Positions 17,724-63,378 of a stretch of 64,000 nt of DNA are shown here, in pieces. A model generated the notes under the pieces. The model was not told the DNA's origin. It did not search any database and was given only the letters and a program-made list of their open reading frames with translations. The position numbers and the translations under genes were made by a program. Source of the DNA: Syntrophorhabdaceae bacterium. Its GTDB lineage: Bacteria > Desulfobacterota > Syntrophorhabdia > Syntrophorhabdales > Syntrophorhabdaceae. Numbering within the stretch: position 1 is the stretch's first letter; each line of letters begins with the position of its first letter. The stretch spans positions 1,824,001 to 1,888,000 of the forward strand of contig OY762209.1 in NCBI GenBank assembly GCA_963665295.1, read 5' to 3'.

Positions 17724-17819
17724 GTGTCATTCCTATATATCCATTATCGACCAATTCTGCTCATTATTTCAACCTAAAACTACGTCTATGCATAATCCGC
17801 AGTCGCCACGTTGGTAATG

Positions 17820-17848
17820 GGTGCTGATAAGGACGCGTTATGTAAACT
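17820..17848 (+). other. dif-like Xer recombination site
   Basis: GGTGCTGATAA-GGACGCG-TTATGTAAACT: XerC-like and XerD-like 11-bp arms with ATAA/TTAT inner symmetry and a 7-bp centre (canonical dif has 6). Confidence 0.55.
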
Positions 17849-17882
17849 GGAGGGGGAGAGTGAGGAAAGAGGGGGGGTAATA

Positions 17883-18016
17883 GGGGAGGCTCGTCCGGCT
17901 TTTGCCGGTCGAGGGGGCGACGTGAGCCCTTAGGTCCAAGTGCCACCCAGCACGCACGGCGTGCGAGAGGGGGAGGCTCGTCCGGCTTTTGCCGGTCGAG
18001 GGGGCGACGTGAGCCC
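17883..18016. repeat. Two identical 47-bp direct repeats (REP-like) with a 40-bp spacer
   Basis: GGGGAGGCTCGTCCGGCTTTTGCCGGTCGAGGGGGCGACGTGAGCCC at 17883-17929 and 17970-18016; internal hairpins CCGGC-TTTT-GCCGG and GGCTC...GAGCC. Confidence 0.9.
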
Positions 18017-18039
18017 CTTTAATAAGCTGCAATGCCCCT

Positions 18040-18810
18040 TTAACTGAAATTGAGTTTCATGCCGTCGTAGGCCGCTACTACCTCGATCCCTGTTCGTTTT
18101 TTCAGTTGTTCCGCAAGGAGGTAGGGCTTTCCTTTTATCATGGTCAGGCCGAAGTGGGTCATGACAGCCACCTTTGGTCTCACTTTCTCGATAATGACGG
18201 CGAAGTCATCGACCGAGAGGTGGTCTATGGGCCGGTCCTTCTCGATGGGCCGGACCCGGAGTACATTCACGATAAGGTAATCCGCGCGATAATGGTCGGG
18301 GAGCGCGTCAAAGAACCTCGTGTCGGAGATGAGGCCGACCGTGGTCCCGTTCAGGTGGAACAGGAGCCCGTATGTCTCCACCCCGTGTAAGTGCCTCACC
18401 GGGGTGGTAAAGGTGACATCCTTGATGGTATAGCTCTTCCCTTCCTTGAGCAACTCGATTCTTTCGAGGAAGGCCCGGGTGTGGCGGAGCACGACAGGAT
18501 CGTCGGTCACCGCGTCTTCAGGGCAAAAAAGGACCCCTCTCTTCTTGAAGCCCCCTTCCGTCATGGCCTCGATCACGATGTTCGTGTCGTTGGAATGGTC
18601 CAGGTGTTTATGGGTAAGGATGATGCCGTCCAGGCGGGCGGGATCGAAATGTTCTTTTGAGCCGTGGATTCTCACGACAGCCCCCGGACCGGGGTCTATG
18701 CAGAGGTTCGTATTCCGGTGCTTGAGCCAGAGTCCCCCTGTTGCCCTTACCTGACTCGCTGCCACGAACCTCGCGCCGCCGCTTCCGAAGAATTTGATAA
18801 AACCTTCCAT
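18040..18810 (-). CDS. MBL-fold metallo-hydrolase
   Basis: F.GSGG, IDPGPG, THKHLDHSND (HxHxDH), H.VETYG, SDT, HL, THFG. Confidence 0.9.
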   Translation of the reverse strand: MEGFIKFFGSGGARFVAASQVRATGGLWLKHRNTNLCIDPGPGAVVRIHGSKEHFDPARLDGIILTHKHLDHSNDTNIVIEAMTEGGFKKRGVLFCPEDAVTDDPVVLRHTRAFLERIELLKEGKSYTIKDVTFTTPVRHLHGVETYGLLFHLNGTTVGLISDTRFFDALPDHYRADYLIVNVLRVRPIEKDRPIDHLSVDDFAVIIEKVRPKVAVMTHFGLTMIKGKPYLLAEQLKKRTGIEVVAAYDGMKLNFS

Positions 18811-18870
18811 TCATACCCTCCTTATGGTATTCCTATTGTAGGAACAACGGTAAGGAATGTCAATTTGGAA

Positions 18871-19395
18871 GTGATAGAGTTTTCAATCAGAGAGACGTCC
18901 CTGGGCAATCTGGTGCTCGTGGCGAGAGAGGGCAGGATAATCGAACTCGACATCTCGCGGGAGCCCGGTTACGGGATAAGAAAGGCGATTCTCGCCCGGT
19001 TCGGGGAGGGGATCGAGTCGGATAGATCCTTCAGGATGGCGCACCTCCTTCTCGACAGGTACTTGAGGGGGCAGAAGGTCGATTTTGACATTGCCCTGGA
19101 CATCTCCGGCGAAGGTGAGTTCACGAGAAGGGTGCTTACCGAACTGATGAAGGTCCCTTACGGACAACTCACGAGCTACGGCAGGCTTTCTCAGAAACTG
19201 GGTTACAGGAACGCGGGCCGCGCGGTAGGCCAGGCGGTGGGGAGAAACCCTATTCCCATAATCATACCGTGTCACAGGGTTATCAGGGAGGACGGCACCA
19301 TCGGTGGTTTTTCCATGGGCCTAAGGGTCAAGGAGCGTTTGCTCGCATTGGAGGGTGTCAGGCTTCATTCATGCTACCCGTTCTATAACCTCTGA
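18871..19395 (+). CDS. ogt: Methylated-DNA-[protein]-cysteine S-methyltransferase
   Basis: VPYGQLTSY, RAVGQA.GRNPIPIIIPCHRVI, GGFS.GL.VK..LL.LEG; start estimated at GTG 18871. Confidence 0.92.
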   Translation: MIEFSIRETSLGNLVLVAREGRIIELDISREPGYGIRKAILARFGEGIESDRSFRMAHLLLDRYLRGQKVDFDIALDISGEGEFTRRVLTELMKVPYGQLTSYGRLSQKLGYRNAGRAVGQAVGRNPIPIIIPCHRVIREDGTIGGFSMGLRVKERLLALEGVRLHSCYPFYNL

Positions 19396-20227
19396 GATCG
19401 AGGGCGACGTAGGTGAAGCCGTAATCCTTGAGACGGCCTGTTATGGTTTCCCTGTTTGCAATCACCACATCGAATTCCCGGTCTATTACCTCTATTCTTG
19501 CGAGGTCACCGTGGTACCTTACCCTCACCTGGGTTACGCCAAGCCCTTTCAGGAACTCCTCGGACAGCTCGATCCTTTTCAACAGGCCCGTATCGATCGG
19601 GGTCCCATAGGGTATTCTCGACGCGAGACACGCGAGAGAGGGTTTGTCGTAGGTCGGTAGCCCGAGGTCTCTGGAGAGCTTTCTCACTTCTGCCTTGGTG
19701 AGGCGTGCCATAAGTATGGGACTCAGCACCTTCTTTTCCGCCGTGGCCCTTCTCCCCGGCCTGAAATCATCGAGGTCGTCAAGGTTCGAGCCTTCCACGA
19801 TACAGGTGAGGCCCCTTGCCCGCGCCGTTTCCTCCGCTTTGCCGAAGAGGTTCAGCTTGCAGTAGTAACAACGCTCCCGCGGGTTCCGCAGGAAATCGGC
19901 GTCTTCCATTTCGGTGGTATCCACGGAGACGTATTCTGCGCCCATGAGGTCCGCATATTCCCTGGCCTCCCGGATTTCCCTTTCAGGATATGAGGGGGAC
20001 AAGCCGATAAAGGCAAGCACCTTTTCCCTGCCCAGCACGTCGATACAGCATTTCAGAAGGAATGTGCTGTCGACGCCTCCCGAATATGCGACGAGCACCT
20101 TTTCAAGCCCCTTTATAATCCTTTTCAGGTCTTCGAATTTTGAGGCGGTATCATTCACATCCCTACTATAACAGGATGACGGCTGATATGCAACGGGGCC
20201 ATGTGCCATGATGCGGCGGCCCGGCAA
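19358..20227 (-). CDS. larE: ATP-dependent sacrificial sulfur transferase LarE
   Basis: PP-loop AYSGGVDS, RCYYCK, DDFRPG, ACLASRIPYG, VRVR.HG.LARIE, LDL.GYRTGSMN. The true start is probably the GTG near 20157. Confidence 0.9.
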   Translation of the reverse strand: MPGRRIMAHGPVAYQPSSCYSRDVNDTASKFEDLKRIIKGLEKVLVAYSGGVDSTFLLKCCIDVLGREKVLAFIGLSPSYPEREIREAREYADLMGAEYVSVDTTEMEDADFLRNPRERCYYCKLNLFGKAEETARARGLTCIVEGSNLDDLDDFRPGRRATAEKKVLSPILMARLTKAEVRKLSRDLGLPTYDKPSLACLASRIPYGTPIDTGLLKRIELSEEFLKGLGVTQVRVRYHGDLARIEVIDREFDVVIANRETITGRLKDYGFTYVALDLRGYRTGSMNEA

Positions 20228-20255
20228 TCCCGGCCATAAGGGGCACCCGCTCCCC

Positions 20256-20918
20256 TTATGGCTTGTAAAGGCGGAAGGCCTCGAAAATGCCGCCTATAAT
20301 AAACTGGACCGCGATGGAGAGGAGCATGAGACCCATTATCCTCCTTGCGACCCTGGTGCCCGTCTTCCCGAGATAGGCGAGGATCGGCCTGGCTTTCACG
20401 AGTATCACATAGGAAATGGCGAAAACGAGGGCGATGTTGCCGAGCAGGATGATCCTGTTGAGGAAGTGCCCTGCGGTCTCGAAAAGGACTATGCCCGTAG
20501 TGAACGCGCCGGGACCCGCGAGGAGGGGAATGGCCAGGGGGATAACCGTGATGTCGTCCATGGCCGCGCTGGTTTCTTCCTCTGCCGAGGAGGACTGGGT
20601 CTTCGTGCCCTGCCCCAGAAGCATTTCTATGGAGATGATCATGAGGAGAATGCCGCCCGCAATCCTGAAGGCGAATATCTCCACGCCCAGAAGCCGGAAG
20701 AACAGATTGCCGCCCACGGTCACCACCATCACGGTCAGGGCGGCGATGAAGGTCGCCTTCTTCACCATGGATGTCTTCTGGACCTCTCCGAAGCGGTCAA
20801 GGAGGGCGACGAAGAGAGGGACGTTCCCTATGGCATTCACTATGACGAACAATGATATGAAGGAGTGGAGAAAAAAGGTGCCGCTGTGGGAGCGGATCAG
20901 GTTGTGCAGGATATCCAT
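20256..20918 (-). CDS. marC: MarC family membrane protein
   Basis: LFVIVNAIGNVPLF, AFRIAGGILL, PLAIPLLAGPG, RIMGLMLLSIAVQFI. Confidence 0.9.
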   Translation of the reverse strand: MDILHNLIRSHSGTFFLHSFISLFVIVNAIGNVPLFVALLDRFGEVQKTSMVKKATFIAALTVMVVTVGGNLFFRLLGVEIFAFRIAGGILLMIISIEMLLGQGTKTQSSSAEEETSAAMDDITVIPLAIPLLAGPGAFTTGIVLFETAGHFLNRIILLGNIALVFAISYVILVKARPILAYLGKTGTRVARRIMGLMLLSIAVQFIIGGIFEAFRLYKP

Positions 20919-21020
20919 TGAGAGAATATAGGCAGTCTGTGCCGATATTTAAATGCCCGGGCCGGAAACAGTATGTCCCGGAGGCGTTGGGCGTGCGCCC
21001 CTAACGCGGGTGGAGAAGGG

Positions 21021-21278
21021 TCATCGGGCAAGCTGAGCCCGTTCCGGCACACCGTTCCTCGCCCGTGAAGAGAAGTTCTTGCAGGACGCGCAGATGGTCT
21101 CTATCCTGGTGCGGGCTTTTTCGGTAAGGAATCCGCCGTACCTATCCGCCGCACGGATCAGGACCTGCACCTCGCCGCTGCATTTGTATGTACGGGCGTT
21201 GTCGCATAAGGTGAAGACGTTCATGGTGAAAAAATTCCCTCCCTGATCCGAGACTGAGACCTTACCGGTCCGAGACAA
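21021..21278 (-). CDS. Small hypothetical protein with Cys residues (possible metal binding)
   Basis: Probable start MNVFTLC after GGAGG; C..C-x2-C pattern. Confidence 0.45.
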   Translation of the reverse strand: MSRTGKVSVSDQGGNFFTMNVFTLCDNARTYKCSGEVQVLIRAADRYGGFLTEKARTRIETICASCKNFSSRARNGVPERAQLAR

Positions 21279-21442
21279 TTGAGCGCCGGTCGCTGCGGGG
21301 ATTTGTACATCAAACCAAGGACATGGGCCGTCGGGCCGAATCGTGCCGGCGGCGCGTCAATCTCTTAGAAATATAAGCTCTCCCACGGAAAAGTCAATGG
21401 GACAGGCCAGGGAATTTCGACTCCGGAAGGAGTCAATTCCTT

Positions 21443-23890: not shown

Positions 23891-23969
23891 TAGTCTGACG
23901 CCCTTTCAGGGTCCGGGCCGCTTATGGGCCTCGATTCCCTACGGTTTCCCAGTTTCACACTGATTAACA

Positions 23970-23985
23970 AGCAAACCCCGTGCCA
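23970..23985 (-). promoter_or_regulatory. Sigma54 (-24/-12) promoter upstream of the GT41 gene
   Basis: Minus strand TGGCACGGGGTTTGCT matches TGGCAC-N5-TTGCW. Confidence 0.75.
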
Positions 23986-24092
23986 TTCAGCCTGATAGGG
24001 GGTTACGAAAATCAATCCGCACCGCGGGCAAATTCGGGGAGAGGGCATTATATTACGGATAGCGGTAAAAAACGAAATAACCAGGGAGGATT

Positions 24093-24992: not shown

Positions 24993-25076
24993 GATTTTGA
25001 CTCCTGACTGAAAGCTAATGACTTGGATATGACCTGTCAACGAGCCGACTTTGCCGGAACAACAGCCGCCTGTTTT

Positions 25077-42899: not shown

Positions 42900-43175
42900 C
42901 TGTTCCTCCTACGTGCGCAATAGATATGATATTCACTACCACTACTTGCTGAAGTATAGCAAGGAATAATCCGAGATGCTCGGTTTTAGGAAGCAATATG
43001 GATGAGGACATGCGGAGTCCGACAGATTGAATCCCGGCTTTTACATACGCTAAATTGCCATCTTTTTGCTAAAGTGATTTGCGTGCAAGTCCTACTTACA
43101 GGCACAGGGCCATTAGGGACGCTCATTGAAATATTAAATGCTCTTTTCTCGTCATGCCAGCGCCAGCTTCTCACG

Positions 43176-43920
43176 CCCTGTTTCTCAAAAATATGATAAT
43201 TCGATGAGCTTCCCTAATCCCTCCCCTTTTCAATGGGGAATTGATGTCAGTAACATATTTATGGCCCACGACCCCATCGCCTCTTGCTCTACAAGAAAGA
43301 TGTTCCCATAGTCAAGGTCCCATATATAACGGTTTGGCGTCTTCGATCGTTGAGTTGGTGTGCCGAGCCGTGATGCAAGAACCTTGGAAGTCTTCTCGAA
43401 TACCCGGTGGGCTTCGGTTTGCTTATCGGTTATATACTGAAGCGTCAATTTATATATCTTTCCGTCGATGGCACCAACTACCAGATACCAACGATACTGA
43501 TTGAAAGTTACTTGTGGGCCGCTGAAAACCTGTTCGCCCGCTATGCCTTTCCCGCCCTGAGAAGACCATAAAGCGGCATACTCATTCGGCGTCAACTCCA
43601 CTAAACCGCGAGCAGTTTTGACGTCTTGGCCGAAGCGATACTCTCCGATCTTGTCGATCATGTCCGCCCCATGACAAAGAATGGAGACCTGCATAATGAT
43701 CAAGCAAGCTGTTAAAACCCTCAGTGCCTTCAAGCCGCACCTCCCAATTGAATTTTCTCTTTGGAGATAGATTATACCACATACCAATGATCTTTTTTCC
43801 GCAAAAGCAATGTGGGTACCGCTCAATATTTTCCCTAATTGCAGACCACTCGGAAGACGACACCTCTAGAGAGCCCCCTGTTTCTCAAGAATCTGGTAAT
43901 TCAATGAGCGTCCCTAATCC
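43176..43920. repeat. 45-bp imperfect direct repeats flanking a single gene, plus an inverted 19-bp copy at 43112-43130
   Basis: 43176-43220 vs 43876-43920 are 40/45 identical and exactly 700 bp apart; ATTAGGGACGCTCATTGAA (43112-43130) is the exact reverse complement of 43900-43918. Confidence 0.85.
43230..43826 (-). CDS. Hypothetical exported protein
   Basis: 198-aa ORF; the true start is probably near LKALRVL, which is followed by a signal-like segment. Confidence 0.6.
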   Translation of the reverse strand: MSGTHIAFAEKRSLVCGIIYLQRENSIGRCGLKALRVLTACLIIMQVSILCHGADMIDKIGEYRFGQDVKTARGLVELTPNEYAALWSSQGGKGIAGEQVFSGPQVTFNQYRWYLVVGAIDGKIYKLTLQYITDKQTEAHRVFEKTSKVLASRLGTPTQRSKTPNRYIWDLDYGNIFLVEQEAMGSWAINMLLTSIPH

Positions 43921-45275: not shown

Positions 45276-45700
45276 CTGCCGGGCCAGATCAACGAATAAC
45301 AAAGCCGTCTTTTCCTGGCAGTATTCGCAGACCTCCCCGCGTCAAGAAGGTCTTTTCAATCCCTATAAACGCTTCACACGACATATGCAGCCAGGGTGGC
45401 CATTAGGCCCTTCCTGCACGTAATGGTTAAATTCTGAGGCGAAAGCATTTCTGCTGTTCTTCCTGAAGTCTACACTCCATCCCGTTTCACCTACATAGCA
45501 CTTCCTGCACGTAATCGGTAAATTCCCCATGAAAACATTTCACCTTTCCTGTAACGGAGTTTTGTGAATTCTTCTGGACATCCCGCGCTACAAGTGATAA
45601 GGGATACCCTAGAGTCAATTTTGGCTAACGCAGCAGGCAAACGAAGGCGCGGGCGCTCAACGATCCCCTGTCTTGGCTGCCGCAAGCGCGCGGAGAGCTC

Positions 45701-46963
45701 ATGGGTTGCGATGTGTTGCTGAGCGAGATAACAGACTTCTATTCGAAGTCACGTGATTACAACGGGATCCCCATTTCCTCTCTCGTCAGACCCCACGGAG
45801 AAATGAAGGTGAGAAGCTGCTTGTCCCAACTCATCAGTGATGGGCTAGTGTCTGTTGTATTCGGCGATTACCACCCTAACCCACACATAAAAGCTCTTCC
45901 CCCAGAACCCGAAGCAGAGCAGCGCGAGAAACTTGATACACCCCGCTTCCAACGCGCATGCGCGTACCCAACTGCCAAGCACCTAACAACAGTAGTCGAT
46001 CCGGCCGCTTTCAGCGACAGACCATTCAACTTGTCTCTGGCGCTTGGGGAGCCACAGTTAACATACAAGAGTTTCGACTTATCGATACTAGAGATATATC
46101 GTAACGATCCGCGTTACCACTATAGCTACGACGACATTCACGGTTGGATTAGCGTCACGAGCGAGTTCTTCGAGACAGACAGGATGAAGGACTCAGACCA
46201 GGTGCTCCTAGAGTCTTTCGGTTTTTGTTTCGATAAGGAGAACAACGTCTACGTGGCTGCATTTCTCAGATACTTGTCAGGCCTTAGCCCTGAGCACCAA
46301 CTTATATGGGCTTCAAAGAAGGTCAGCAACGAAACGTACTTGCATCCAGATTACCATCGGACATCGATAATCGGCGATTGGCCTGAACGACTCTCCCTGT
46401 ATCAGGCCGTTCTGGCGGAGATGAAGGCGATAAATGATATCTGTGCAGCCATCGGACGTAAATCTTTCTTCAAAAACGACTTCGCCGAGGGCAGACGGCC
46501 ACGTGAGTTCGGGTATCTGCTCCGCCCGACGTTGAAGGAATACAACGAATTTATCCACCTTCTCGACAAAATGCTATCCGAGAATATTAACAGAGAGTTT
46601 TTCGGACATGATGTTTCTTTTGAGAGAGAAGAAGAAAGAGGTGACGGAAAGATTATTGTAAGGCAAAAGGGGACAATTCAGATACTGACTGATTGGCTAA
46701 GAAGTTGCTTTAAGACCAATGACTGGTCAGAAATTGAAGAAATGCTTCAGACGCTCCGAGATGTTAGGAAGTTGCGTCAAAAGCCAGCTCACTCGATAAA
46801 AGAGAACGAGTTCGACCAACAGTACATTCGTGAACAGCGGGAGGTCATGAAGCAAGTTTACCGTGCAGTCATGATTTTGCGCGTTGCGTTGGCGTTGCAT
46901 CCTTCGGCCTCCGAGATCAGGATTCCCAGGCAGCTAACGGATAGCCTTATATGGGCAGTGTAA
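45701..46963 (+). CDS. Hypothetical protein with C-terminal HEPN-like R-x4-H motif (candidate defence RNase)
   Basis: 420 aa; LRDVRKLRQKPAH in a helical C-terminus; no Walker A motif seen. Confidence 0.65.
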   Translation: MGCDVLLSEITDFYSKSRDYNGIPISSLVRPHGEMKVRSCLSQLISDGLVSVVFGDYHPNPHIKALPPEPEAEQREKLDTPRFQRACAYPTAKHLTTVVDPAAFSDRPFNLSLALGEPQLTYKSFDLSILEIYRNDPRYHYSYDDIHGWISVTSEFFETDRMKDSDQVLLESFGFCFDKENNVYVAAFLRYLSGLSPEHQLIWASKKVSNETYLHPDYHRTSIIGDWPERLSLYQAVLAEMKAINDICAAIGRKSFFKNDFAEGRRPREFGYLLRPTLKEYNEFIHLLDKMLSENINREFFGHDVSFEREEERGDGKIIVRQKGTIQILTDWLRSCFKTNDWSEIEEMLQTLRDVRKLRQKPAHSIKENEFDQQYIREQREVMKQVYRAVMILRVALALHPSASEIRIPRQLTDSLIWAV

Positions 46964-47117
46964 GTGGTAGGGGCTAGCGCAAGGCGCTCCACGCGGACAC
47001 CGCCTGGCGGCTCTCTCAAGCTTGATGGGACAAAAGGGTCGGCACCCGACATGAGACAACCATGAAGCGGCTTCTCTCTGACCCTCGATGTAAAGGCCAG
47101 AACAGACGGGGGTGTGA

Positions 47118-47588
47118 ATGAAAAAGTTTGTGTGGGACACATCTGCAATCATAAACATTAAAGAGCCGAATTCAGAGGGCTATTCACCCGGTCACAGCCT
47201 AATTAAAGACCTTTCTGATGGATGGATCCGCGGGCCATATCAGAATATATTCCCATCTTTGGCAGTTTTCGAGGTGTCCGCTACGGTCTCTCGAATGCAT
47301 CGCGAAGGCAAAAGAATATTGAGAGAATTCTACCTACTGGATGAAAAGTCAATATTGTATGACGTTGATAGGGGTCTTATTCTCAAGAGTCATGATCTTC
47401 ATGCTAAACAGGGCTTTGATCAACTAAAAGGAGCAGATTTGGTTTTTGCATGTATTGCCTATATTGAAGATGCTTATCTCGTAACGCTAGACAAACAGCT
47501 TGGAAGAAGCATATCAAGACATGTTAAAATCATAGATCTAAACGATAGTCGTGATTTGCCGGAATATAGACAATTATTTGAGCCCTAA
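47118..47588 (+). CDS. PIN domain protein
   Basis: FVWDTSAII, L..FEV, LKGADLVFAC.A, LVTLD. Confidence 0.85.
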   Translation: MKKFVWDTSAIINIKEPNSEGYSPGHSLIKDLSDGWIRGPYQNIFPSLAVFEVSATVSRMHREGKRILREFYLLDEKSILYDVDRGLILKSHDLHAKQGFDQLKGADLVFACIAYIEDAYLVTLDKQLGRSISRHVKIIDLNDSRDLPEYRQLFEP

Positions 47589-47606
47589 CCGAATACCAAC
47601 CATGGA

Positions 47607-50096: not shown

Positions 50097-50392
50097 TCAC
50101 CGATCTTAGAGATATTGTATAATATTCTTTGACGACATTATAGCAAAGGAAAGAGAGCAACACCCATAGGGGCCCTTCATACAAAGTGAACTTTTGGTCC
50201 TAAAGCCAGTACATGTTACGTTCCTATCATTTTTGTCCTATGGCGCATGTCTCACACCTTTCCTTCGATGATGTGCAACCATTCGAAAAAGGTCCATCAT
50301 CGACTTGTTGTGAAGTTCACGCACAACCCTCTCTTGACCCCGTGGCTCTTTCTGCACGTAATCCGCAGGTTCTCATGAGAAATCATTTTTGT

Positions 50393-51263
50393 TGTCAACG
50401 GTCTTTTCAATTTGAGCCATTTTCGGTCGTCAAGACTGAGCCACCCGCCCTTACGCCCAACTCCTTTTCTTCCACCTCCTGTCCGATCTTTCCCCTAAGC
50501 CTGTAACTGTTTCCTTTCATGTTGATCACCACGCTGTGATGGAGGAGGCGATCAAGGAAGGCGGTTACAATGACCGGGTCCTGGAAGAGCTCCGTCCAGT
50601 CCGAGAAGGCCTTATTGGAGGTAATGATGGTGCTGGCCTTTTCGTACCGGTTGGCGATGAAGCGGAAGAAGAGATTGCATTCTTCCCTGTCGATGGGCGT
50701 ATAACCTACCTCGTCCACGATCACGAGCGCCGACTTGCGGTAGGCCCTCGCTCTTCCCTTGCCGCCGGACGCACGGTCCTTTTTCAACTTCCCGATGAGG
50801 TCCTCCATGGTAGTAAAGTAGATGCTCAATCCTGCCTGGCACGCCTTTACCGCGAGGGATACCGCCAAGTGGGTCTTCCCGATGCCGGGAGGGCCGAGAA
50901 AGATCACATTGTCCTTCTGCCGGACAAAGGTCAGGTCAAAGAGGGCCATGATCTTCTGTCGATCCAATGTGGGTTGGAAGGCGAAGTCGAACTCATCGAT
51001 GCTCTTGACAAAGGGAAGGCCCGATATCTTCAAAGATGTCTCCACTCTCCTTTGCTCCCTTGAGGCGACCTCCTCTTCAAGGAGTTCATCAAGAAATCTG
51101 AGATAACTCTTCCCCTCATCCTCCGATACCCGTATTGCCCTTTCCAGGATGGTGCCCATATGGGAGAGCTTCAGTCGCGTGAGACTCCCCTGAATTCGGT
51201 CAAAGACGAAGGTATCGTTCATATGGCCACCGCATCATAAAAAGACGGGGACCGTACTTCCAG
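50393..51263 (-). mobile_element. Truncated IS21-family element (right end, istB and last 14 codons of istA)
   Basis: Terminal TGTCAACG...TTGAGCCA...CTGAGCCA at 50393-50444; istA tail LEVRSPSFYDAVAI* overlaps the istB ATG; the rest of istA is absent. Confidence 0.85.
50407..51222 (-). CDS. istB: IS21 helper ATPase IstB
   Basis: FDF.FQP, GPPGIGKTHLA, IVDEVGY, RYEK.STIITSNK.F..W...F.D.....A.LDRLLHH, G.SYR. Confidence 0.95.
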   Translation of the reverse strand: MNDTFVFDRIQGSLTRLKLSHMGTILERAIRVSEDEGKSYLRFLDELLEEEVASREQRRVETSLKISGLPFVKSIDEFDFAFQPTLDRQKIMALFDLTFVRQKDNVIFLGPPGIGKTHLAVSLAVKACQAGLSIYFTTMEDLIGKLKKDRASGGKGRARAYRKSALVIVDEVGYTPIDREECNLFFRFIANRYEKASTIITSNKAFSDWTELFQDPVIVTAFLDRLLHHSVVINMKGNSYRLRGKIGQEVEEKELGVRAGGSVLTTENGSN

Positions 51264-51303: not shown

Positions 51304-51660
51304 TGAAAGGATTAAATTGTCTGCGGTTTGCAGAAAAACAAAGGTTTAGGCGTTGAAGAAATCCTTAATGATGCCACCCTTTAACTGTTTCTTCTCGTAA
51401 ATCATTGCCGAGTCAAAGCAGTCCGTGCTCGACTTATAGGTCAAGTTCACACTAAAGCCCTGTCTCGGCCCCTTAACGCTTTCTATGAGGGGCTACCGGG
51501 ACGTCCTTCAAGGATGTCCCCATTGATTGAACAAGTAAGCGGGAAACCGTGAATGTCAATATTTCACCGCCGCCCCGTCCCCATTAGATCCTGAAGTCAG
51601 GGGTCAAGAAGTCCGCCGTCGATCATTGCGATATCCTGAGAGAGAAGATAAGCCCCGCCC

Positions 51661-54146: not shown

Positions 54147-54177
54147 TAGGGGCTTCTATAAGGGTATTTAAGGAGGT

Positions 54178-54226: not shown

Positions 54227-54456
54227 GCTCGCAAGCTATGACAGAGCAAGAGCCTTCACTTAGCCGGAAGGGTGGAATTGACACAAAGGGCCTATCTGTG
54301 GCGCCATGCTGCGCCGGTGTCCTCTGACGTGCGGCAAGTACGTCGCTTAGAAGCACCTGCCGTTGGCCGGCACCGCATCTGATACATACCTCTGACCCCG
54401 TGAATCTGCACTCCCTGGGGAGCCCGACCTCCTGACTCTTTCCCAGCCTACGACGT

Positions 54457-54645
54457 ATGACAATACGTTGCCTGGAAGTAGTGAATAGAGAATTGGCGAT
54501 GGAGTTCGGCCGGGGCTTCTCTGAAAAGAACCTCCGGCACATGATCCGTTTTGCAGAAGTCTTTCCCGATGAGGAGATTCTCTCCGCACTGCGGAGAGAA
54601 TTGAACCGGACCCACCTGAAGAAGATCATATGCCCTTGGTGGTGA
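54457..54645 (+). pseudogene. DUF1016 (YhcG) N-terminal fragment
   Basis: L..EFGRGFSEKNLRHMIRFAEVFPDEEILSALRREL..TH...I; truncated at both ends. Confidence 0.8.
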
Positions 54646-54735
54646 TACTGTCATTCACTTCTGCACGTAATAAACAGTCAGCCGCCGTAATGTTATAGCT
54701 CAACAGCAATGAACTTGGATGCTTCCCCCGCCGCC

Positions 54736-56196: not shown

Positions 56197-57392
56197 TTGC
56201 CCTTCTCCTTTTTCGCGGCCGGCGCCACGGACACGGCAGCACCGGTGGAAAGCGAATCAGAAGGATTCAATATAACCCGGTCGCTCGGCCCCACGCCCAC
56301 GAGCACTTCAATGGTCTGACCGAAATCCCGTCCCAGCTTCACGTTCCGAAGCTCCACCTTCCCGTCGGCCTTCACCACACCGACCTGAGGCCCTTCCGGC
56401 CGGAACAGCACCGTATTAGCAGGGAGGGTGAGGACGGGCTCACTCTTCGCATCGGTAAACCGTACCTGGGCATACCCGCCCGCAATGATCTCCTCCTTCG
56501 GGTTATCAAGCTCTAGCTCTATGAGGAGCGTCCTGGAGTCGGCGGCCATGACACCGGCCGTACGGATCACTCGGGGTTTAAATGTCCGGTCAGGGAACTC
56601 TGACACGGTCAGCTCTGCGCTCTGGCCGGTTCGGATGCTCCGGGCCATTGACTGGGGAACCTGCACGAATATCCGGAGTTTCCCTGTTTGGGCGAGGTGG
56701 AAGATTTCCTTCCCCGCCCCGGCGACGATGAGATCGCCCGAATCGATATTTCGGACCGTGATGGTGCCCGCGAACGGCGCCTTGACCCGTAGGAACGATT
56801 CGAGCCTTTCGAGCCTGCGCACTTCCGAGCGGGCCGATTCGGTACTTGCCGCTTTAAGCTTGAAATCGGCCTGTTTCTCGGCGTTCTCCTGGTCGCTCAC
56901 GCTCGCGGTCTTCACGAGACCCGCCCACCGCTCCGCCGTGATCTTGGCGAGCCCAAGGGCCGCCTCCGCCTGGGCGAGCTGTCCCCGGGCCCGCTCGATC
57001 TCCTGATTGAGCTCCGGCGCGTCGATCTCGGCAAGGAGCTGGCCCTGCTTGACATGACTCCCTATGTCCACGAGCCTTCTTTTAAGATAGCCGTTTGCCC
57101 GTGCATAAATCGGAGCCTCCACAAATGGCTTCACCTCCGCGGGAAGGGGGAGGTGCGACCCTGATTGGCCAGGTTTGGGAGACACCACTACGACCGTAGG
57201 AACGGAAAGTTCCTTCGTTTCCGCGCGCAGCATGGCCCGCTCCCGAAGCCTCGGCACGAGACCTGCCACGACACCAATAATGATCAGGAGCGCGAGAATG
57301 ACCCCGACAAGCATGAACCTGGAGCGTCCCCGACCGGCCGTGTCTCCCGTATTGTGGATGAGATCAAAAGGATTATTTTCTGTTGAATTCAT
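56193..57392 (-). CDS. RND efflux periplasmic adaptor
   Basis: IYARANGYL...VDIG..VK.GQLLAEIDAPE, APF.G.IT.RNID.G, GRDFG; start reassigned to MNSTEN, overlapping the permease stop. Confidence 0.9.
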   Translation of the reverse strand: MNSTENNPFDLIHNTGDTAGRGRSRFMLVGVILALLIIIGVVAGLVPRLRERAMLRAETKELSVPTVVVVSPKPGQSGSHLPLPAEVKPFVEAPIYARANGYLKRRLVDIGSHVKQGQLLAEIDAPELNQEIERARGQLAQAEAALGLAKITAERWAGLVKTASVSDQENAEKQADFKLKAASTESARSEVRRLERLESFLRVKAPFAGTITVRNIDSGDLIVAGAGKEIFHLAQTGKLRIFVQVPQSMARSIRTGQSAELTVSEFPDRTFKPRVIRTAGVMAADSRTLLIELELDNPKEEIIAGGYAQVRFTDAKSEPVLTLPANTVLFRPEGPQVGVVKADGKVELRNVKLGRDFGQTIEVLVGVGPSDRVILNPSDSLSTGAAVSVAPAAKKEKGK

Positions 57393-60300
57393 GGTAACAC
57401 CTCGTCGGTTTTGATTTCTGTTGGATCGGGCTCGGCTCCTTTTCTGTGGAGAAGGCTGAATACGACCGGGACGAAGAAGAGGGTTGCAATAGTGGCAAGG
57501 ATCAGGCCGCCAATGACCGCCCGGCCAAGGGGTGCATTCTGCTCGCCCCCTTCGCCCAGTGCAAGGGCCATGGGGAACATGCCGATCATCATGGCAAGGG
57601 CCGTCATGAGCACCGGTCGCAGGCGGCCTACACCCGCCTCCCATGCGGCCCTCATGGGGTCGAGGCCGCGGCGGAGATTATTTCTTGCGAAAGTCACCAC
57701 CAGGACCGAGTTGGCCGTAGCCACTCCCAGGCTCATAATTGCCCCCATCATGGCGGGAACGCTGAGCGTGGTGAAGGTAAGGTAGAGCCCCCACACTACG
57801 CCCGCAAAGGCACCGAGAAGGGCGGTAATGATGATGAATGGATCAAGCCAGGACTGGAAGTTGATGACCAAGAGGAGGTAGACGAAGGCGATTGCTAGAA
57901 GGAGCCCTATGGAGAGTCCGGTGAAGCTCGAATGCATGGTGTCTGCCTGCCCCCGGAACATGATGAAGCTCCCCTTGGGAAGCTCCTTCTTTGCCTGTTC
58001 CACCAGGGGCATGATATCCCGGAGCACGCCCCCCAGGTCACGCCCGCTCACTCCGCCGAATACGTCGATCACGGGCATGACATTGTACTGCGAGTAAATG
58101 GGTGAGCCGCTCGCGCGCTTCAGAGAGGCGAGGTTGGCGAGGACCTGCGCGTCGTTTTTGCCCTGCCGGTTCGCGCTTACCGGGATGCCGTTCAAGGCGG
58201 CGAGCGAGTCGATGGGGTGCTCCGGCACCCTCACGTTCACCAGGTACTGTATGCCGTTTTTGGGGTTGAGCCAGTAGTTCGGCTGCACCTGGCTGTTGCC
58301 GCTCAAGCTCAGGAGCACCGAGCCGGTAACATCCCGCTCGGAGAGCCCGATCTGTGATGCCTTGGTACGGTCGACGTCGAAATGGAGCTCGGGCTGATCC
58401 GTTGGTTGCTGGATGCGCACATCCACGGCCCCGGGAACCCGGCGGACCTTTTCAACGAGTCGTGCCGCAACGGCGTGGCTTTTCACGCGGTCCTTGCCGA
58501 CGATCTGGATGTCGAAGGGCGCGGGCAAACCGAAATTGATGGTCTGGTTCACGATATCGGCGGGCAGAAAATAAAAGGTTGTCCCCGGAAAGTCACGGTT
58601 AAGCCGGGCCCTCAGGCGCCTCACGTAGCCTTCCGTGGACCGGTGACCGGATTTGAGGGATACGAGTATATCCCCGTCGGCCGTCCCCGTGAGGCCGTTG
58701 TCGATGTAGGTGAGGGGGATCCCTCCGAAGGGGATGCCGAGATTATCGAGGATGCCGGCGATCTCTTTGGCGGGGATTTCTTCCCGTATGACACCCTCGA
58801 TCCTGTCAGCAAGCCGGGTTGTTTCTTCGATTCGCGTCCCTGTTGGGGCCCGGACATGGAGCCTGAACTGGCCAGCGTCTACCGAGGGGAAGAAATCCTG
58901 GCCGAGTTGAGGGATGAGAAGCCAGGAGCCGACGCAAAACGCGGTAAAAAGGATCGCGAAGGCCGTTCGATGGGCAAGGACATTGCCCAGCATCCGGCGA
59001 TAGTCTTCCCGGAAACGGGTGAATCCGCGCTCGAAACTTCCCTGCAGGGACACAAACGGGCGCAGCAATGGAGAAACCGATCCCGGGTCCGTTCCATGAC
59101 CCCGGTATTCGATATGGCGGTAGAACCACATGACAAGTGTCGGAATGAGGGTCCGGGAGAGCACGTAACTTGCGAGCATCGCGAATACGACTGCTTCGGC
59201 AAGAGGCACGAAAAGATACCGGGCAACGCCGGTTAAAAAGAACATCGGCACGAAGACGATGCAGATGCAGAGGGTGGAGACAAATGCAGGCAGGGCTATC
59301 TCCTGTGCCCCGTCCAAGATCGCCTGGACGTTCGGTTTGCCGAGCGCCATCTGGCGATGGACATTTTCAATTTCCACCGTCGCGTCATCCACCAGAATGC
59401 CAACGGCCAGGGCTAGTCCTCCCAGGGTCATGAGGTTGATGGTCTCGCCGAGGGCGGAGAGAAGGCCCAAGGAGCACAGAACGGAAAGAGGAATTGAGAG
59501 AGCGATGATAAAAGTGCCCCGCCATGTACCAAGAAAGAGGAGGATCATTATGGCCGTGAGCGTGGCGGCGATAATACCCTCTTTCATGACGCCGTTTATC
59601 GCCGCCCTCACGAAAAGGGACTGGTCGGCGAATTCCTTAACCCCGAGTTCCGAGGGAAGACCGCTTAGAATCCGGGGCATGGTCTTCTTCACGCTGTCCA
59701 CCACTGCGAGCGTAGAGGCGGCACCCGTTTTCATGATGGTAAGGAGAACTCCGCGGACCCCGTCGAGGCGTACCACATTTTGCTGGGGTTGGTATCCGTC
59801 ATGGACGTGAGCCACGTCGCCGACCCGGATTACCGCGCCGTTCACCGTCTTCACGGGAAGGTCGTTGAGCGCCGAAATCACCTCCGGGTTGCTGTTCATG
59901 AAGACGTTGTATTCCGTGGCGGCAATTTTTGCGGTGCCGCTGGGGAGAACGAAGTTCTGGGCGTTGACTGCGTTCACGACATCCTGGGGGGCTAGGTTCT
60001 TCGCCTGGAGGGCCGGAAGGTCGAGGTCCACGGCGACGACCCTTGCCTTGCCCCCGTACGGATAGGGCACCGAAGCGCCGCGCACGGTCGAAAGGCCCAC
60101 CTTGATCTGGTTCATCGCCATGTCCTGCAATTCCTGCTCGGAGAACCTTGTGCTCGCCAGGCTGTATTGCAGGATAGGCACTGTCGAGGCATTGTAGCGG
60201 ATCACGAAGGGCGGCGTGACCCCCGGCGGAAGGAACCTTTGGGCCGCCTGGCCGCTGGCGGCAAGCTGCCCCACCGCATCGGAAACCGAGGCACCCGGCT

Positions 60301-60589
60301 GGAGAAACACCTTGATGACACCAGCGCCGTTATAGGCCGTTGCTTCGATGTGCTCAATATCGTTCACCAGAGCTGCAATCATTCGCTCATGGTTCGAGAT
60401 GATCCGCTGATCCACCTCTTTCGCGTTGAGGCCGTTGTAGACCCAGACCACGCTCACGACCGGGATATTAATCTCAGGAAATATATCCGTCGGAGTGCGA
60501 AGCAGCACGAACGGCGTCAGTAATAAAAGCACCAACGAAGCCACCACGAACGTGTATGGTCGACGTAGTGCGAGTTTAACAATCCACAT
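57389..60589 (-). CDS. RND efflux permease (NolG/CzcA-like subgroup)
   Basis: MWIVKLALRRPYTF, DIFP.INIPVV, GILVDDATVEIEN, RLRPVLMTALAM.IGM.P.AL..GEGGEQNAPLGRAVIGG. Confidence 0.95.
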   Translation of the reverse strand: MWIVKLALRRPYTFVVASLVLLLLTPFVLLRTPTDIFPEINIPVVSVVWVYNGLNAKEVDQRIISNHERMIAALVNDIEHIEATAYNGAGVIKVFLQPGASVSDAVGQLAASGQAAQRFLPPGVTPPFVIRYNASTVPILQYSLASTRFSEQELQDMAMNQIKVGLSTVRGASVPYPYGGKARVVAVDLDLPALQAKNLAPQDVVNAVNAQNFVLPSGTAKIAATEYNVFMNSNPEVISALNDLPVKTVNGAVIRVGDVAHVHDGYQPQQNVVRLDGVRGVLLTIMKTGAASTLAVVDSVKKTMPRILSGLPSELGVKEFADQSLFVRAAINGVMKEGIIAATLTAIMILLFLGTWRGTFIIALSIPLSVLCSLGLLSALGETINLMTLGGLALAVGILVDDATVEIENVHRQMALGKPNVQAILDGAQEIALPAFVSTLCICIVFVPMFFLTGVARYLFVPLAEAVVFAMLASYVLSRTLIPTLVMWFYRHIEYRGHGTDPGSVSPLLRPFVSLQGSFERGFTRFREDYRRMLGNVLAHRTAFAILFTAFCVGSWLLIPQLGQDFFPSVDAGQFRLHVRAPTGTRIEETTRLADRIEGVIREEIPAKEIAGILDNLGIPFGGIPLTYIDNGLTGTADGDILVSLKSGHRSTEGYVRRLRARLNRDFPGTTFYFLPADIVNQTINFGLPAPFDIQIVGKDRVKSHAVAARLVEKVRRVPGAVDVRIQQPTDQPELHFDVDRTKASQIGLSERDVTGSVLLSLSGNSQVQPNYWLNPKNGIQYLVNVRVPEHPIDSLAALNGIPVSANRQGKNDAQVLANLASLKRASGSPIYSQYNVMPVIDVFGGVSGRDLGGVLRDIMPLVEQAKKELPKGSFIMFRGQADTMHSSFTGLSIGLLLAIAFVYLLLVINFQSWLDPFIIITALLGAFAGVVWGLYLTFTTLSVPAMMGAIMSLGVATANSVLVVTFARNNLRRGLDPMRAAWEAGVGRLRPVLMTALAMMIGMFPMALALGEGGEQNAPLGRAVIGGLILATIATLFFVPVVFSLLHRKGAEPDPTEIKTDEVLP

Positions 60590-60735
60590 GGTCTATCTCC
60601 TCCTGCTGTACTGCTCTTGGGGGGCGGCGCCGAAGTCTTGTTGAAACGACCCCTCTCGCCCACAAACGTAAATGGATCCAGGGAACCTGCACCTGAACCT
60701 GTGATTTAAGAGTTTAAACTACGGGTATTGCGGTA

Positions 60736-61032
60736 TTAGCAACGAAGGGGTGGGGCTTCTGTCTGGGTGTTGGGGGTAGGGGCTTCAAAATCAAAAGTAG
60801 ACGCTGTCAGAACAACGGCCGGATCGGGACTCATCGGGCCCGAGGGCGGAAGGCCGACCATCTCGGCGAGGTCGGAAGAAGACGTCACCGAGTCGCGAAG
60901 ACACGGTTTCATCTTATGCGAGAACGGGCAGCCCTGAGAGAGCTTGTGCGCGCAGGTAAGCGGTACCATGCCCGCAATGAGCATGATAATAGCACATGCC
61001 ACAATAGTCGAGGTCAAACTATGACGCCGCAT
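60736..61032 (-). CDS. Small exported Cys/His-containing peptide upstream of the RND operon
   Basis: GGAGG RBS; hydrophobic N-terminus, CAH..CPF.H...PC, C-terminal PPLRC. Confidence 0.55.
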   Translation of the reverse strand: MRRHSLTSTIVACAIIMLIAGMVPLTCAHKLSQGCPFSHKMKPCLRDSVTSSSDLAEMVGLPPSGPMSPDPAVVLTASTFDFEAPTPNTQTEAPPLRC

Positions 61033-61527
61033 TATCTATCCTCCGCAATCCTTCACTTCACTAGTATAGCATAAACGAATAATGTGAAGGAACAGCGAAG
61101 AGAATGTGAATAATTATGAAGAAGAACCTGCCGCGCCTGCTTCCTACGCGCGCATAATCGGTAATTCGCACAACAGACTGATAGAAATATCCTTTCTTTC
61201 TATCAGTCTGTAACAACCTCTTCACCCTAAGGTCTACCACCGTTTCAGCCATTTGCATTGTTAAAAGAGCCCGTGAAACACGCTGCGAGGTGGGCCCAAA
61301 CGTTGAGATGGGTTTTTTGTGAATTGCGATTTCATTATCAATTTCTAATCGCTATTAACACTTTCTATGCGTAATTCGCAGCGGAGGGCTTACCCTGGGT
61401 TATTTACTTGCAGGTGACGGCATCAGATCCATCTAATTTCGGCCCATCGGGTGATCAATAAAGTGGCGGTGATAGCCCTTTATGGTGATTGTCACACCAC
61501 TTACCTAATGATGTCAGTGGTTTAAGA

Positions 61528-61548
61528 GCGGAGAGGGTGGGATTCGAA
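61528..61548 (-). other. 3' fragment of a tRNA (probably Ser); att-site core
   Basis: Minus strand TTCGAATCCCACCCTCTCCGC corresponds to a T-loop plus acceptor stem 3' strand; no 5' half of a tRNA is adjacent. Confidence 0.75.
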
Positions 61549-61739
61549 AATACGGCCATTCAGTAATGACACGGCCTTCTAAGCTTTACCTAAATATCAC
61601 CTAAACATCAAATCGCGTGCTGTTGACTCCACCTACAAGTCAATAACCGAGGCCGAGGGTTTGGCCGAGGACTACGCATAGAAAGCATTGCATTTTGGCG
61701 TCAAGAGAGGACCAAGGCGAACTTCACGACAAACAACCC

Positions 61740-62549
61740 TCACCCCCCAATCCGCTTCAAGAGGAGAATAATACCAGGTGAAGTGAAAACCAGTTTGTGT
61801 GAGTTCAGTTTCAAGGTAGGACGACGAGAATGACAAACATCGTCATCGGAAAACTGATCCCCATTAGAAACATACAGGCAGCCCAACCTCTGACAAACTG
61901 TCTTGAGGGAGCCTTTTCCGTTCGCGCAAAATCGCGCCACATTGAATAGTCCTCCGGATGCAACCAAAAGTACCCGCCCGGGATCATTAGTAGCAGGCCC
62001 ATGAGGATTACACCGATCATGATCCATGAAACAGACGCTATCGCCTTCGCTGCTTGAGGCCCTTCGAAGAGGGCGGAGATAGTAACCGCTAAGGACCGCC
62101 GACGGTCTACAATAGACGTGTCTTATGTTCTCCCAGTTGACGCGGCGTTTCACGAGACCTAGACGCTGCACGATCTCGGCGCCGTCATTCTCAATGAATC
62201 CTCTCTCGTTCACTTCATAGCTTCCATGATTGGTGTCTATGAAGTAGAACGGTCTACCACTACGTATCGAAATTCTTTCCTGCAATCCCGTTACATTCTT
62301 TAGCTCTACGCGCGTTTTGAAGAGATGCTTGATTTCTAGATGTTCCGACGTGAGCGAAATGCGCTCGGGAGTCAACAGACTAGCACATATCCCGATCAGC
62401 CAAAGTAGCAAGGCGAGACCGACATACAGAAAAGCAACCTGAATTTTATTCAAGGCACCTCCGATGTGGCTTTGCTGGTGATCTCCATGTAAGCTATCAT
62501 TGTTCTTTTGGCTGGCTATCTGATCTCTTGGACGTAGGGGCGACTGCAT
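61740..62549 (-). CDS. Hypothetical membrane protein (3' part possibly frameshifted)
   Basis: N-terminal TM plus a PH-like region; an overlapping frame (61811 to about 62120) encodes additional TM helices. Confidence 0.45.
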   Translation of the reverse strand: MQSPLRPRDQIASQKNNDSLHGDHQQSHIGGALNKIQVAFLYVGLALLLWLIGICASLLTPERISLTSEHLEIKHLFKTRVELKNVTGLQERISIRSGRPFYFIDTNHGSYEVNERGFIENDGAEIVQRLGLVKRRVNWENIRHVYCRPSAVLSGYYLRPLRRASSSEGDSVCFMDHDRCNPHGPATNDPGRVLLVASGGLFNVARFCANGKGSLKTVCQRLGCLYVSNGDQFSDDDVCHSRRPTLKLNSHKLVFTSPGIILLLKRIGG

Positions 62550-63174
62550 CCCCCGATGAGTCTGGCTTAGCGCAGTTCTTCATATAGGGCGTCAGTCCGG
62601 CCCTGGGCTTTGCGTCCGGGTATTTCTTAGCCAGTTCCTCGGCACGAATGCTGAAGGATTTCCCCTCCTCCGCACGACCTATCTCTTGAAGGGCTCTAGC
62701 ATACAAAGTGAAGTATGCCACGAACTGGCCGGGATCGGTCCCAATGAATTCTTCTTTATCTACGATCGGGATGGCCTGGCCGAAATAAGATACGGCTTCG
62801 GCGTACTCTTCCCGATCGTACTTGAGCAAGGCAAGTTCGAAAAGCGCCATGTGGGTCGGACCGGATGTTTCTTTGTCATATTTCAAAGCCTCGGTCAGCA
62901 TAAGTTCCGCGTTCTTGTGATCGCAAAGAATGCCAAGCATCCTTCCGTACGAGTATGCGGCGGCCGCGTGACGTTGGGGTTCCAAGTTTCCCATTCTTAC
63001 GTTTACCAGCGCCCGGTAATAGTTCATTTTGGCGAGTTCGTATTGACCTTCTTGTTCAGCCACGAACCCGGCCTGATAATATCTTTGGTACGTCACTCTG
63101 TTTATGGGATTCGCGCAGCTATTAAGAACAAGAAAAAAGACCCCGATCAAACAAAGTTTGTATGCTGTCGTCAT
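62497..63174 (-). CDS. TPR-repeat lipoprotein
   Basis: GAGG RBS, lipobox LNSC, TPR-like helices (A..YY.RAL, LFELALL.Y....Y.EA..YF.QA). Confidence 0.7.
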   Translation of the reverse strand: MTTAYKLCLIGVFFLVLNSCANPINRVTYQRYYQAGFVAEQEGQYELAKMNYYRALVNVRMGNLEPQRHAAAAYSYGRMLGILCDHKNAELMLTEALKYDKETSGPTHMALFELALLKYDREEYAEAVSYFGQAIPIVDKEEFIGTDPGQFVAYFTLYARALQEIGRAEEGKSFSIRAEELAKKYPDAKPRAGLTPYMKNCAKPDSSGDAVAPTSKRSDSQPKEQ

Positions 63175-63378
63175 GTAGGTTTCCTCTTTGTGGGAGGCAG
63201 AGTAACACACCCATATCATTACCACTTACAACGATTTATGTCCACAAAAGATTAGAAAGAACAGCCTTTAGGAATTAAGGCGAAACTCGTTTGTCGTGAA
63301 AGGTGCCCATTACGTGCAGAAAGCATTCAACGGGTGATGTAAGGTGAGGTGTTGACTTCAGGAAGAAGCAGGTATCAC

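Follow-up and report, generated by a model that had tools for sequence, protein, structure and literature searches.

A two-part DNA border, apparently undescribed so far, brackets accessory-gene stacks across many anaerobic bacteria, and a short motif repeated in the window (the whole 64-kb stretch of DNA analysed here) is a local variant of one of its arms, for which the family consensus is TTTCAATCCGTAAT. We read these borders, with a probability of roughly 0.55, as site-specific recombination sites of Desulfobacterota, made up of 7-bp strand-exchange cores and accessory arms, through which cassettes are stacked. The genome under study would retain the system only in decay, with about 20 ends gathered in islands of the tRNA-linked and defence kinds and without the recombinase pair described below. 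Searches of openly accessible main texts returned no paper on these ends or on the two-recombinase element.

The motif and the ends in the window

The 5.51-Mb genome holds eight exact copies of CTGCACGTAAT, against a Markov expectation of 1.4-1.8, and five of the eight fall in the window (P ~1e-8, or ~1e-6 corrected for the number of windows), where the motif ranks first among all 11-mers in repeat count (Table 1). Exact copies and variants were recovered where the original prediction had placed them; its claim that all are intergenic holds for the five exact copies against Pfam-annotated or longest ORFs, but a 97-codon unannotated ORF (50213-50506) overlaps the copy at 50352. The copies at 17785, 41873, 54659 and 61143 would belong to the family by their arm only, because their flanks bear no similarity to it. 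An Rfam search and a tRNA scan of the window returned no matches, and an 11-bp repeat around the GT5 module, CAGTCGCCACG, did no better than many chance 10-11-mers and was set aside.

Table 1. Features of the motif family and its surroundings, in window coordinates
Feature	Position	Strand	Remarks
Exact CTGCACGTAAT copies	45414-45424, 45505-45515, 50352-50362, 54661-54671; 63309-63319	+; - (last)	
Motif variants	17784-17796, 61363-61375; 61671-61683	+; - (last)	
Motif variants	61151-61158; 41873		
Arm-like TCTATGCATAA	17784..17810	+	At GT5 module edge; family flanks absent, membership doubtful
dif-like site GGTGCTGATAA-GGACGCG-TTATGTAAACT	17820..17848	+	7-bp centre
Arm-like TCTATGCATAA	41873..41885	-	Family flanks absent, membership doubtful
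Arm, local B-type variant TTCCTGCACGTAA	45411..45424	+	Rung 1 of five-rung arm/core ladder, ~45-bp steps
B end	45459..45515	+	Core CTTCCTG 45459-45465; arm TTCCTGCACGTAA 45502-45514
Core-like TTTCCTG and arm CTACAAGTGATAA	45545..45600	+	Weak model match, E 2.8
Cargo	45701..47588	+	420-aa ORF of no family, then PIN-domain gene
B-type end	50308..50389	+	Degenerate core; arm 50349-50361
Truncated A-type end	51436..51487	+	Interrupted within arm by GGGAC[AG]TCC-type end
Isolated arm, then TAAACA	54658..54671	+	No core upstream
Degenerate arm-like sequence with TCGGTA	61145..61168	+	Membership doubtful
A end	61362..61416	+	Arm TTTCTATGCGTAA; core GCAGGTG 61410-61416; directed toward tRNA-Ser fragment
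tRNA-Ser 3' fragment	61530..61548	-	Between two inverted A ends
A end	61630..61684	-	Arm TTTCTATGCGTAG; core GTAGGTG 61636-61630; E 2e-4, model trained without this genome
Cargo	61740..63225	-	TPR gene and 269-codon ORF of no family, between B end 63365 and A end 61684
B end ladder	63219..63365	-	Core CTTCCTG 63365-63359; arm 63322-63310
Same ladder, further parts	63219..63365	-	Degenerate core TTCCTAAAG 63274-63266; further arm near 63232-63219

The whole border spans 60-150 bp, of which the motif is one arm. An A end runs from the arm across 35 bp to GTAGGTG, its conservation beginning at the arm and ceasing ~10 nt past the 7-mer, and a B end runs from CTTCCTG across ~36 bp to the arm. Complementarity between the flanks of GTAGGTG reaches 2.81 over 103 cores, compared with a mean of 2.47 and a maximum of 2.78 in 1000 partner shuffles and with 1.17-1.95 at shifted centres; this symmetry excess is small and also common to kin.

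The B end at 45459..45515 shares 76-78% identity over 99-142 bp with two sites of a relative of the same genus (G001); the flank upstream of the preceding arm (45411..45424) is not related to the family. The next rung overlaps a sigma-70-like promoter, TGGACA-N17-TAAGGG, that faces the cargo (read by eye), and between the 420-aa ORF and the PIN-domain gene attC-like remnants were seen by eye only. The end at 50308..50389 is broken at 50390 by a TGTTGTCAACGG end adjoining an IstB gene; IS21 ends begin with TG. The 200 bp upstream of the truncated A-type end recur at genome positions 2297614, 2281969 and 687475, the TAAACA behind the isolated arm also follows many B-end arms in relatives, and the intact tRNA-Ser gene lies at genome positions 1890812-1890903. 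Cores of this genome have drifted to GCAGGTG, CCAGGTG and GCACGTG.

A coding remnant was considered and rejected: although YVQKA can be read on the reverse strand, the frame is often interrupted by stops, and the variable bases occupy codon positions 1 and 2. The sigma-54 promoter consensus includes an invariant GG, absent from the border, and that identity was likewise dropped. An ordinary regulon, with the motif as a transcription-factor site, e.g. of LexA, is the least probable reading of all, for although promoter-like sequence (read by eye) often lies downstream of B ends, the strong sites of this genome are confined to variable islands, A ends are located at the 3' ends of genes, and the spacers between motifs are homologous across copies.

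Host dif and the half-site reading

The original prediction likened the motif to an XerC arm and took it for a half-site scar of a tyrosine recombinase; in the version weighed here, host XerC/XerD leave the scar and cross over within the six nucleotides after TAA. The arm does terminate in TAA, the six bases that follow are biased to T....A as had been stated, and one of the doubtful copies has a dif-like site at a distance of 24 bp. Against this, the host dif (AGTACTGATAA-GAGATA-TTATGTTAACT), found at the GC-skew maximum and kept in all five relatives searched, shares no more than 5 of 10 XerC-arm bases with the motif and lies 2 Mb from the sites of the window; an XerD arm after a 6-8-bp centre is absent behind every family copy, as had also been observed, and present solely at the separate site at 17820; and the recombinase-element insertions described below map to GTAGGTG/CTTCCTG, the probable exchange point, 35-36 bp from the proposed crossover. 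Half-site scars are hence very improbable. The complete dif-like site exists, with a centre of 7 bp instead of 6 bp, and is probably a feature separate from the border family. Left and right halves are reassorted around the six nucleotides after TAA, which resembled a crossover signal, but the repeating ladder of arms and cores accounts for it. A comparison of filled and empty alleles, proposed as a check, resolved no module's allele pair to base level. From the broader idea of modules stacked by a recombinase, the accessory-module borders, the arrays and the tyrosine recombinases at borders survive, and the XerC scars do not.

Distribution and arrays in Desulfobacterota

Among 401 genomes of the phylum, the A pattern gives 80 matches in 22 genomes (reversed control, 0) and the B pattern 227 matches in 29 (reversed control, 2); 14 of the 22 A-pattern genomes are also B-positive against 1.6 expected, kin not being independent in this count. 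Copies of an end reach 85 per genome, in G366, where the patterns used find 85 B and 9 A ends. Models trained without this genome recover its sites 597684, 594537 and 590222 and window site 61685 (E 4e-5 to 5e-3), and find no matches in the reversed genome. With models trained on this genome's own sites, the best match outside it among 150 phylum genomes has E 9e-5, and within the order only G001 and G012 score. The exact B consensus of this genome has no match in 185,579 genomes, a set from which near relatives may be missing, none in viral contigs, and 13 in metagenomes, every one without flanks. Over all genomes the A pattern yields 24 matches, about the chance number, three of them real and in deltaproteobacterial records; the plasmids and phages searched gave no match.

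In relatives the ends form arrays of a single orientation, cargo-A|B-cargo, with A and B ends abutting 13-61 bp apart and recurring between accessory genes. Long one-strand runs occur in all six mapped regions, which were picked around known sites. The genes beside the ends have no recurring protein family in common. Contigs assembled from four runs, which cannot reveal rare circles, contain no joints at sites. A 200-aa recombinase beside one array was discarded, being without homologue in other loci or in this genome.

Such arrays bear on a reading in which the A|B junction, 115-170 bp long, is a mobile element in miniature, or in which the B end combines a paired operator with a promoter; it would spread from one accessory gene to the next and provide for their expression, and the intervening genes would not move as units. 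It would account for the sequence 5' of the A arm, unrelated from copy to copy, for an A-to-B spacer of family-specific length (13-14, 42, 49 or 58-61 nt), for 85 B ends in a single 3.1-Mb genome and for the promoter-like sequence behind B. It predicts both orientations, however, whereas 13 of 13 matches lie on one strand in G549 C3 and again in G229 C85; lone A and lone B ends bound the clusters externally, and neither terminal inverted repeats nor hairpins were detected at the ends. We consider it unlikely.

A two-recombinase element inserted into the cores

A 2-kb element comprising two Xer-like tyrosine recombinase genes with inverted ends, CTATACGTA[AC], is found between direct copies of either core 7-mer, its insertion dividing the A|B junction; complete two-sided direct repeats are formed by GTAGGTG in G197 and G413 C113 and by CTTCCTG in G493 C10 and C28. 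Words of the CTATACGTA[AC] type abut a core 7-mer in 15 of 20 cases in the fetched loci, most of them fetched around ends and only G493, G413 and G355 C13 chosen by recombinase; in this genome none of five does. The element end agrees with window arms at 9 and 8 of 10 bases. The recombinase pair is absent from this genome, from G001's three tyrosine-recombinase hits and from the array-rich G549 and G468, of which all four hits each were fetched, and the genes after the examined B ends include no recombinase family. Integrases of tRNA islands, IS91-linked recombinases and IntI were set aside, the ends not regularly flanking them. The recombinase family concerned, labelled XerD, has at least 6437 clusters at E 1e-60.

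Alternatively, the borders might serve a different enzyme, either host XerC/XerD helped by an accessory factor or a recombinase that escaped recognition, and the element be a parasite that targets them. Splitting of the A|B junction by the insertion would fit, as would the array-rich genomes without the pair, in each of which two of the four hits are XerC/XerD-sized top scorers; yet both core regions are unlike the lineage's dif, and the arms match the element end at 8-9 of 10 bases against 4-5 of 10 for the host XerC arm. This makes a parasite a minority reading, a shade more probable than the miniature element.

Under the preferred reading of the borders as recombination sites, GTAGGTG and CTTCCTG would be the strand-exchange cores, and the arms extra binding sites for this pair of recombinases or for a related enzyme. 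Two like cores in succession would recombine to yield a circle of B end, promoter, cargo and A end, whose re-entry at another core would stack modules head to tail. Some modules may also carry an attI-like site, so that integron cassettes would load into them. That the element inserts exactly into the border suggests a system of gene shuffling distinct from integrons. A more tentative proposal, held at somewhat less than even odds, sees here a second system of gene cassettes that depends neither on IntI/attC nor on XerCD/dif: a mobile Xer-like pair would excise promoter-bearing modules with attI sites and stack them in arrays of up to dozens of units per genome in anaerobic Desulfobacterota; its marks would be conserved 7-bp cores, arms 45-47 bp apart and integron cassettes inside modules that are themselves mobile. 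If true, it would set a gene-capture platform beside integrons and pdif modules in an anaerobe phylum, with up to 85 ends in a small genome, assign a role to the large recombinase family for which XerD is at present the sole label, and offer one route by which cassette clusters end up far from integron integrases. The claim is directly testable, with cores and arms as well as the candidate enzymes delimited at base resolution.

Comparison with known systems

Integrons, CALINs and attG insertion are treated in bioRxiv 10.1101/2022.09.11.507474, and integrons as set out there resemble the present system in lining up small accessory genes in head-to-tail arrays. Sequence like attI and attC may be present in some modules here. 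In contrast to integrons, the sites at the borders consist of arm and core in double-stranded form and do not fold, and each module has its own promoter (by eye). There is no intI in this genome or G001, and none of 28 intI loci has an end closer than 1.5 kb; L151 has one truncated intI, 170 bp away from an A end. The ends were rejected as attC, the single-strand hairpin RYYYAAC...GTTRRRY not being found and fold z-scores being ~0 at 16 of 18 sites; the two exceptions, 61157 and 61374, extend into an adjacent repeat of terminator-like form or into AT-rich flank. An attC-like end stands 7-12 nt before the arm at 7 of 101 A ends, two doubtful by eye (shifted controls 0, 0 and 1), and at none of 79 B ends, and an attI-like word is present downstream of 4 of the 79 B ends, the reverse strand giving 3. 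A serine-resolvase res site was dismissed, this genome having no PF00239, as were IS91-family ends, with no Y2 transposase in G000 or G001.

Sites of pdif modules alternate in orientation, whereas the borders are directly oriented, lack an XerC/XerD arm pair and have two ends that differ from each other, the arms standing 45-47 bp apart. The pdif modules of Acinetobacter, from the available text of PMC6449649 and PMC12907356, likewise hold accessory genes between repeated tyrosine-recombinase sites, with the enzyme in trans.

RIT, BIM and Tn554-like elements also have adjacent overlapping tyrosine-recombinase genes on a short element, and the available text of PMC3414803 and PMC8138268 makes no link from them to cassette arrays. 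RIT elements have inverted ends (PMC10214605, in part), and ours shares a terminal inverted repeat at both ends; it was rejected as a RIT for having two recombinase genes between them, not three adjacent. Its genes are two of ordinary, Xer-like size, not three, not one with an unknown protein and not one long and one short, and it makes a 7-bp direct repeat of a fixed target. Behind no examined B end did a family-level search find the four-gene recombinase operon that follows the left end of SEs and GInts, elements marked also by strand-biased circles and the lack of an empty site. As far as PMC10214605 and PMC5385486 describe them in part, these share with the present system several tyrosine recombinases, a 6-7-nt staggered exchange, a left-end promoter, cargo and nesting in islands; the exchanged word here, however, is conserved and not a variable footprint.

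Module borders and their arrays

The recurrent 11-mer of the window, a local variant of the border arm, occurs there in five of the eight exact copies found in the 5.51-Mb genome (clustering P about 1e-6, windows counted), and no second 11-mer in the window has five copies; the repeated motif of the original prediction was confirmed, and its listed variants were found. Alignment sorts the copies into two classes that carry conserved sequence 45 bp to either side. In the anatomy of 122 A and 55 B ends, an A end consists of the arm, 35 bp and the 7-mer GTAGGTG, conserved from the arm and fading about 10 nt past the 7-mer, while a B end consists of CTTCCTG, about 36 bp and the arm. Where both occur, B follows A at a spacing of 13-14, 42, 49 or 58-61 nt. 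No folding of border sites was seen.

Six regions, mapped around known sites, contain long one-strand runs of ends with accessory genes between them (13/13 hits on a single strand in each of G549 C3 and G229 C85, contigs of two other genomes), and at the four loci inspected in full a junction is followed by promoter-like sequence, a gene and the next junction. In the source genome the borders cluster next to the islands of tRNA-Ser and tRNA-Leu, and also where defence genes are dense. HU/IHF-like genes are cargo or neighbours in seven border loci (among them L316, L323, L296, L328, L330 and L295), and a DNA-bending factor of this kind could help arm-core synapsis. Individual features are collected in the table.

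Coordinates and context of border-associated and dif-related features
Location	Feature	Observation
Genome 590222; 594432 with 594537; 597684	B; A with B; A	B end, cargo, A end order, as in relatives' arrays
Window 63365; 61684	B; A	B end, TPR cargo, A end order
Window 61361-61685	Two A ends facing each other	tRNA-Ser 3' fragment between, flanked by GGTGAT / ATCACC repeats; looks like an island attachment junction
Window 54400-54631	Broken DUF1016-like reading frame (label of the original prediction, without a confirming family hit)	Stops 28 bp upstream of an isolated arm
Window 43112-43918	800-bp piece bounded by 19-bp inverted repeats ATTAGGGACGCTCATTGAA	Repeats match Y1_Tnp element ends at genome 848940 and 860437; such ends often adjoin or interrupt A/B borders
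L058:12810-19896 (genome 2274810-2281896)	Operon behind a B end: two D12-type methyltransferases, HAD hydrolase, 868-aa protein with GGDEF-like and weak thymidylate-synthase-like parts	May be a defence system based on DNA modification
L003:7014-10474 (genome 477004-480491)	520-aa ORF between two convergent XerC-like genes	Within a type III restriction / AbiEii island
L439:5064-6900	ORF resembling a reverse transcriptase; flanks of group II intron type (by eye)	Inserted in a junction that also contains a decayed recombinase pair
G197	Two-recombinase element	GTAGGTG both sides; between A arm and B end
G413 C113	Two-recombinase element	GTAGGTG both sides; adjoining A arm
G493 C10, C28	Two-recombinase element	CTTCCTG both sides
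G355 C13, G413 C54, G493 C13	Two-recombinase element	Same arrangement on the one readable side
Genome 3906636	True dif, AGTACTGATAA-GAGATA-TTATGTTAACT	At the GC-skew maximum
Window 17820-17848	dif-like site, 7-bp centre	Fits lineage XerC and XerD arms; at edge of low-GC GT5 module
Window about 14500-18040	GT5 module	Missing from G003 between the same flanking genes (154 bp gap there)
Genome 5111713, 5115617	Two arm-like words then TCCACA-G[TC]CGCAGAGG	3.9 kb apart; resemble right flank of the 17785 copy
Window 17883-18022, 14525-14639	Intergenic repeats 70-140 bp long, in two families	Copies by the dozen in this genome, G001 and G003

Distribution among genomes

Patterns in this genome's own spelling gave almost no matches in other genomes. 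The A pattern TTTCWAWBCGTAA-N32-YTTGYAGGTG, reached by stepwise loosening and run with one mismatch, had 80 matches in 22 of 401 genomes of the phylum Desulfobacterota (reversed control, 0), and the B pattern CTTCCTGWAA-N34-TTWCAAWNNGTAA, run on the same genomes, 227 in 29 (control, 2), with most in G366 (85) and G549 (39). Fourteen of the 22 A-positive genomes were also B-positive, against 1.6 by chance, a comparison that counts related genomes as independent and uses patterns tuned on earlier hits. G001, of the same genus, has two copies with 76-78% identity across 99-142 bp, and a third at E 2e-15 by a model built without that copy.

Models built solely from other genomes recovered this genome's 597684, 594537, 590222 and 4985545 and window position 61685 at E 4e-5 to 0.02, were weak at window positions 61360 and 45546 (E 2-3) and had zero matches on the reversed genome. 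By themselves they fail to recover the CTGCACGTAAT copies, which are assigned to the family because of their core-arm geometry, the distance from the CTTCCTG start to the arm being 43 bp at both 45502 and 63322, as against 44 in the family pattern.

A recombinase element at the cores

Inside junctions lies an element of 2 kb, bounded by inverted CTATACGTA[AC], whose two Xer-like tyrosine recombinase genes overlap and whose products score under all NCBIfam cut-offs. These end words abut a core word in 15/20 cases in fetched loci, most of them fetched around ends and those of G493, G413 and G355 C13 picked by recombinase, vs 0/5 in this genome. At E 1e-60, at least 6437 clusters match the first recombinase, labelled XerC or XerD only. 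Strand-exchange cores look like this: an asymmetric, conserved 7-mer set between inverted flanks and repeated on both sides of a tyrosine-recombinase element that has inserted there. Flank complementarity at GTAGGTG is 2.81, vs a mean of 2.47 and a maximum of 2.78 for partner shuffles and 1.17-1.95 at shifted centres, and the element end agrees with the window's A arm at 9/10 and its B arm at 8/10.

Starting from the borders, their order and the insertion of the element at cores, all directly observed, we propose that the arms would bind the recombinase pair or a relative, that exchange between successive like cores would free a B-cargo-A circle, and that re-entry of such circles would produce stacked modules. 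To this full reading, excision and stacking at cores by the pair or a relative, we give a probability of roughly 55%; that the borders are recombination sites of some enzyme is appreciably more probable. Counting against it, no module movement was caught at the sites on the contigs of four runs, and the pair is absent from this genome, G001's three hits, G549 and G468: it may act in passing and then be lost, or it may be a mere parasite of the border sites.

The original prediction had read the motif as XerC half-site scars of a process capturing and stacking gene modules; it was right in kind and wrong in detail, as the motif shares 5/10 bases with the XerC arm of the host dif. The true dif lies 2 Mb from the window and is kept in all five relatives searched. 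The predicted dif-like site does exist, and the adjoining motif copy lacks the family flanks; site and GT5 module may stem from an independent insertion by Xer recombination, far from the terminus.

Comparison with known systems

Sequences resembling attC ends finish 7-12 nt upstream of the arm at 7/101 A ends, two of them doubtful by eye (controls 0, 0 and 1; B ends 0/79). An attI-like word, with 12 matches in 28 intI loci, also occurs within modules, one copy abutting an arm directly, and shows no enrichment behind B ends (4/79 vs 3). Some modules therefore may take integron cassettes, which are not their defining feature, and no intI was found in this genome or G001.

Our literature search, confined to text outside figures, supplements and subscription papers, found no description of A/B ends, and an earlier one may exist. 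Set against published accounts, the borders work like those of pdif modules and depart from them in a defining test; the same holds for an integron array (bioRxiv 10.1101/2022.09.11.507474). The 2-kb element is similar to RIT and Tn554-type elements (PMC3414803, PMC8138268) but failed a defining test of theirs, and in the comparison with SEs and GInts (PMC10214605, PMC5385486) none of the B ends examined led into a four-gene core. The borders would represent a new variant among tyrosine-recombinase cassette systems, and possibly a system of their own.
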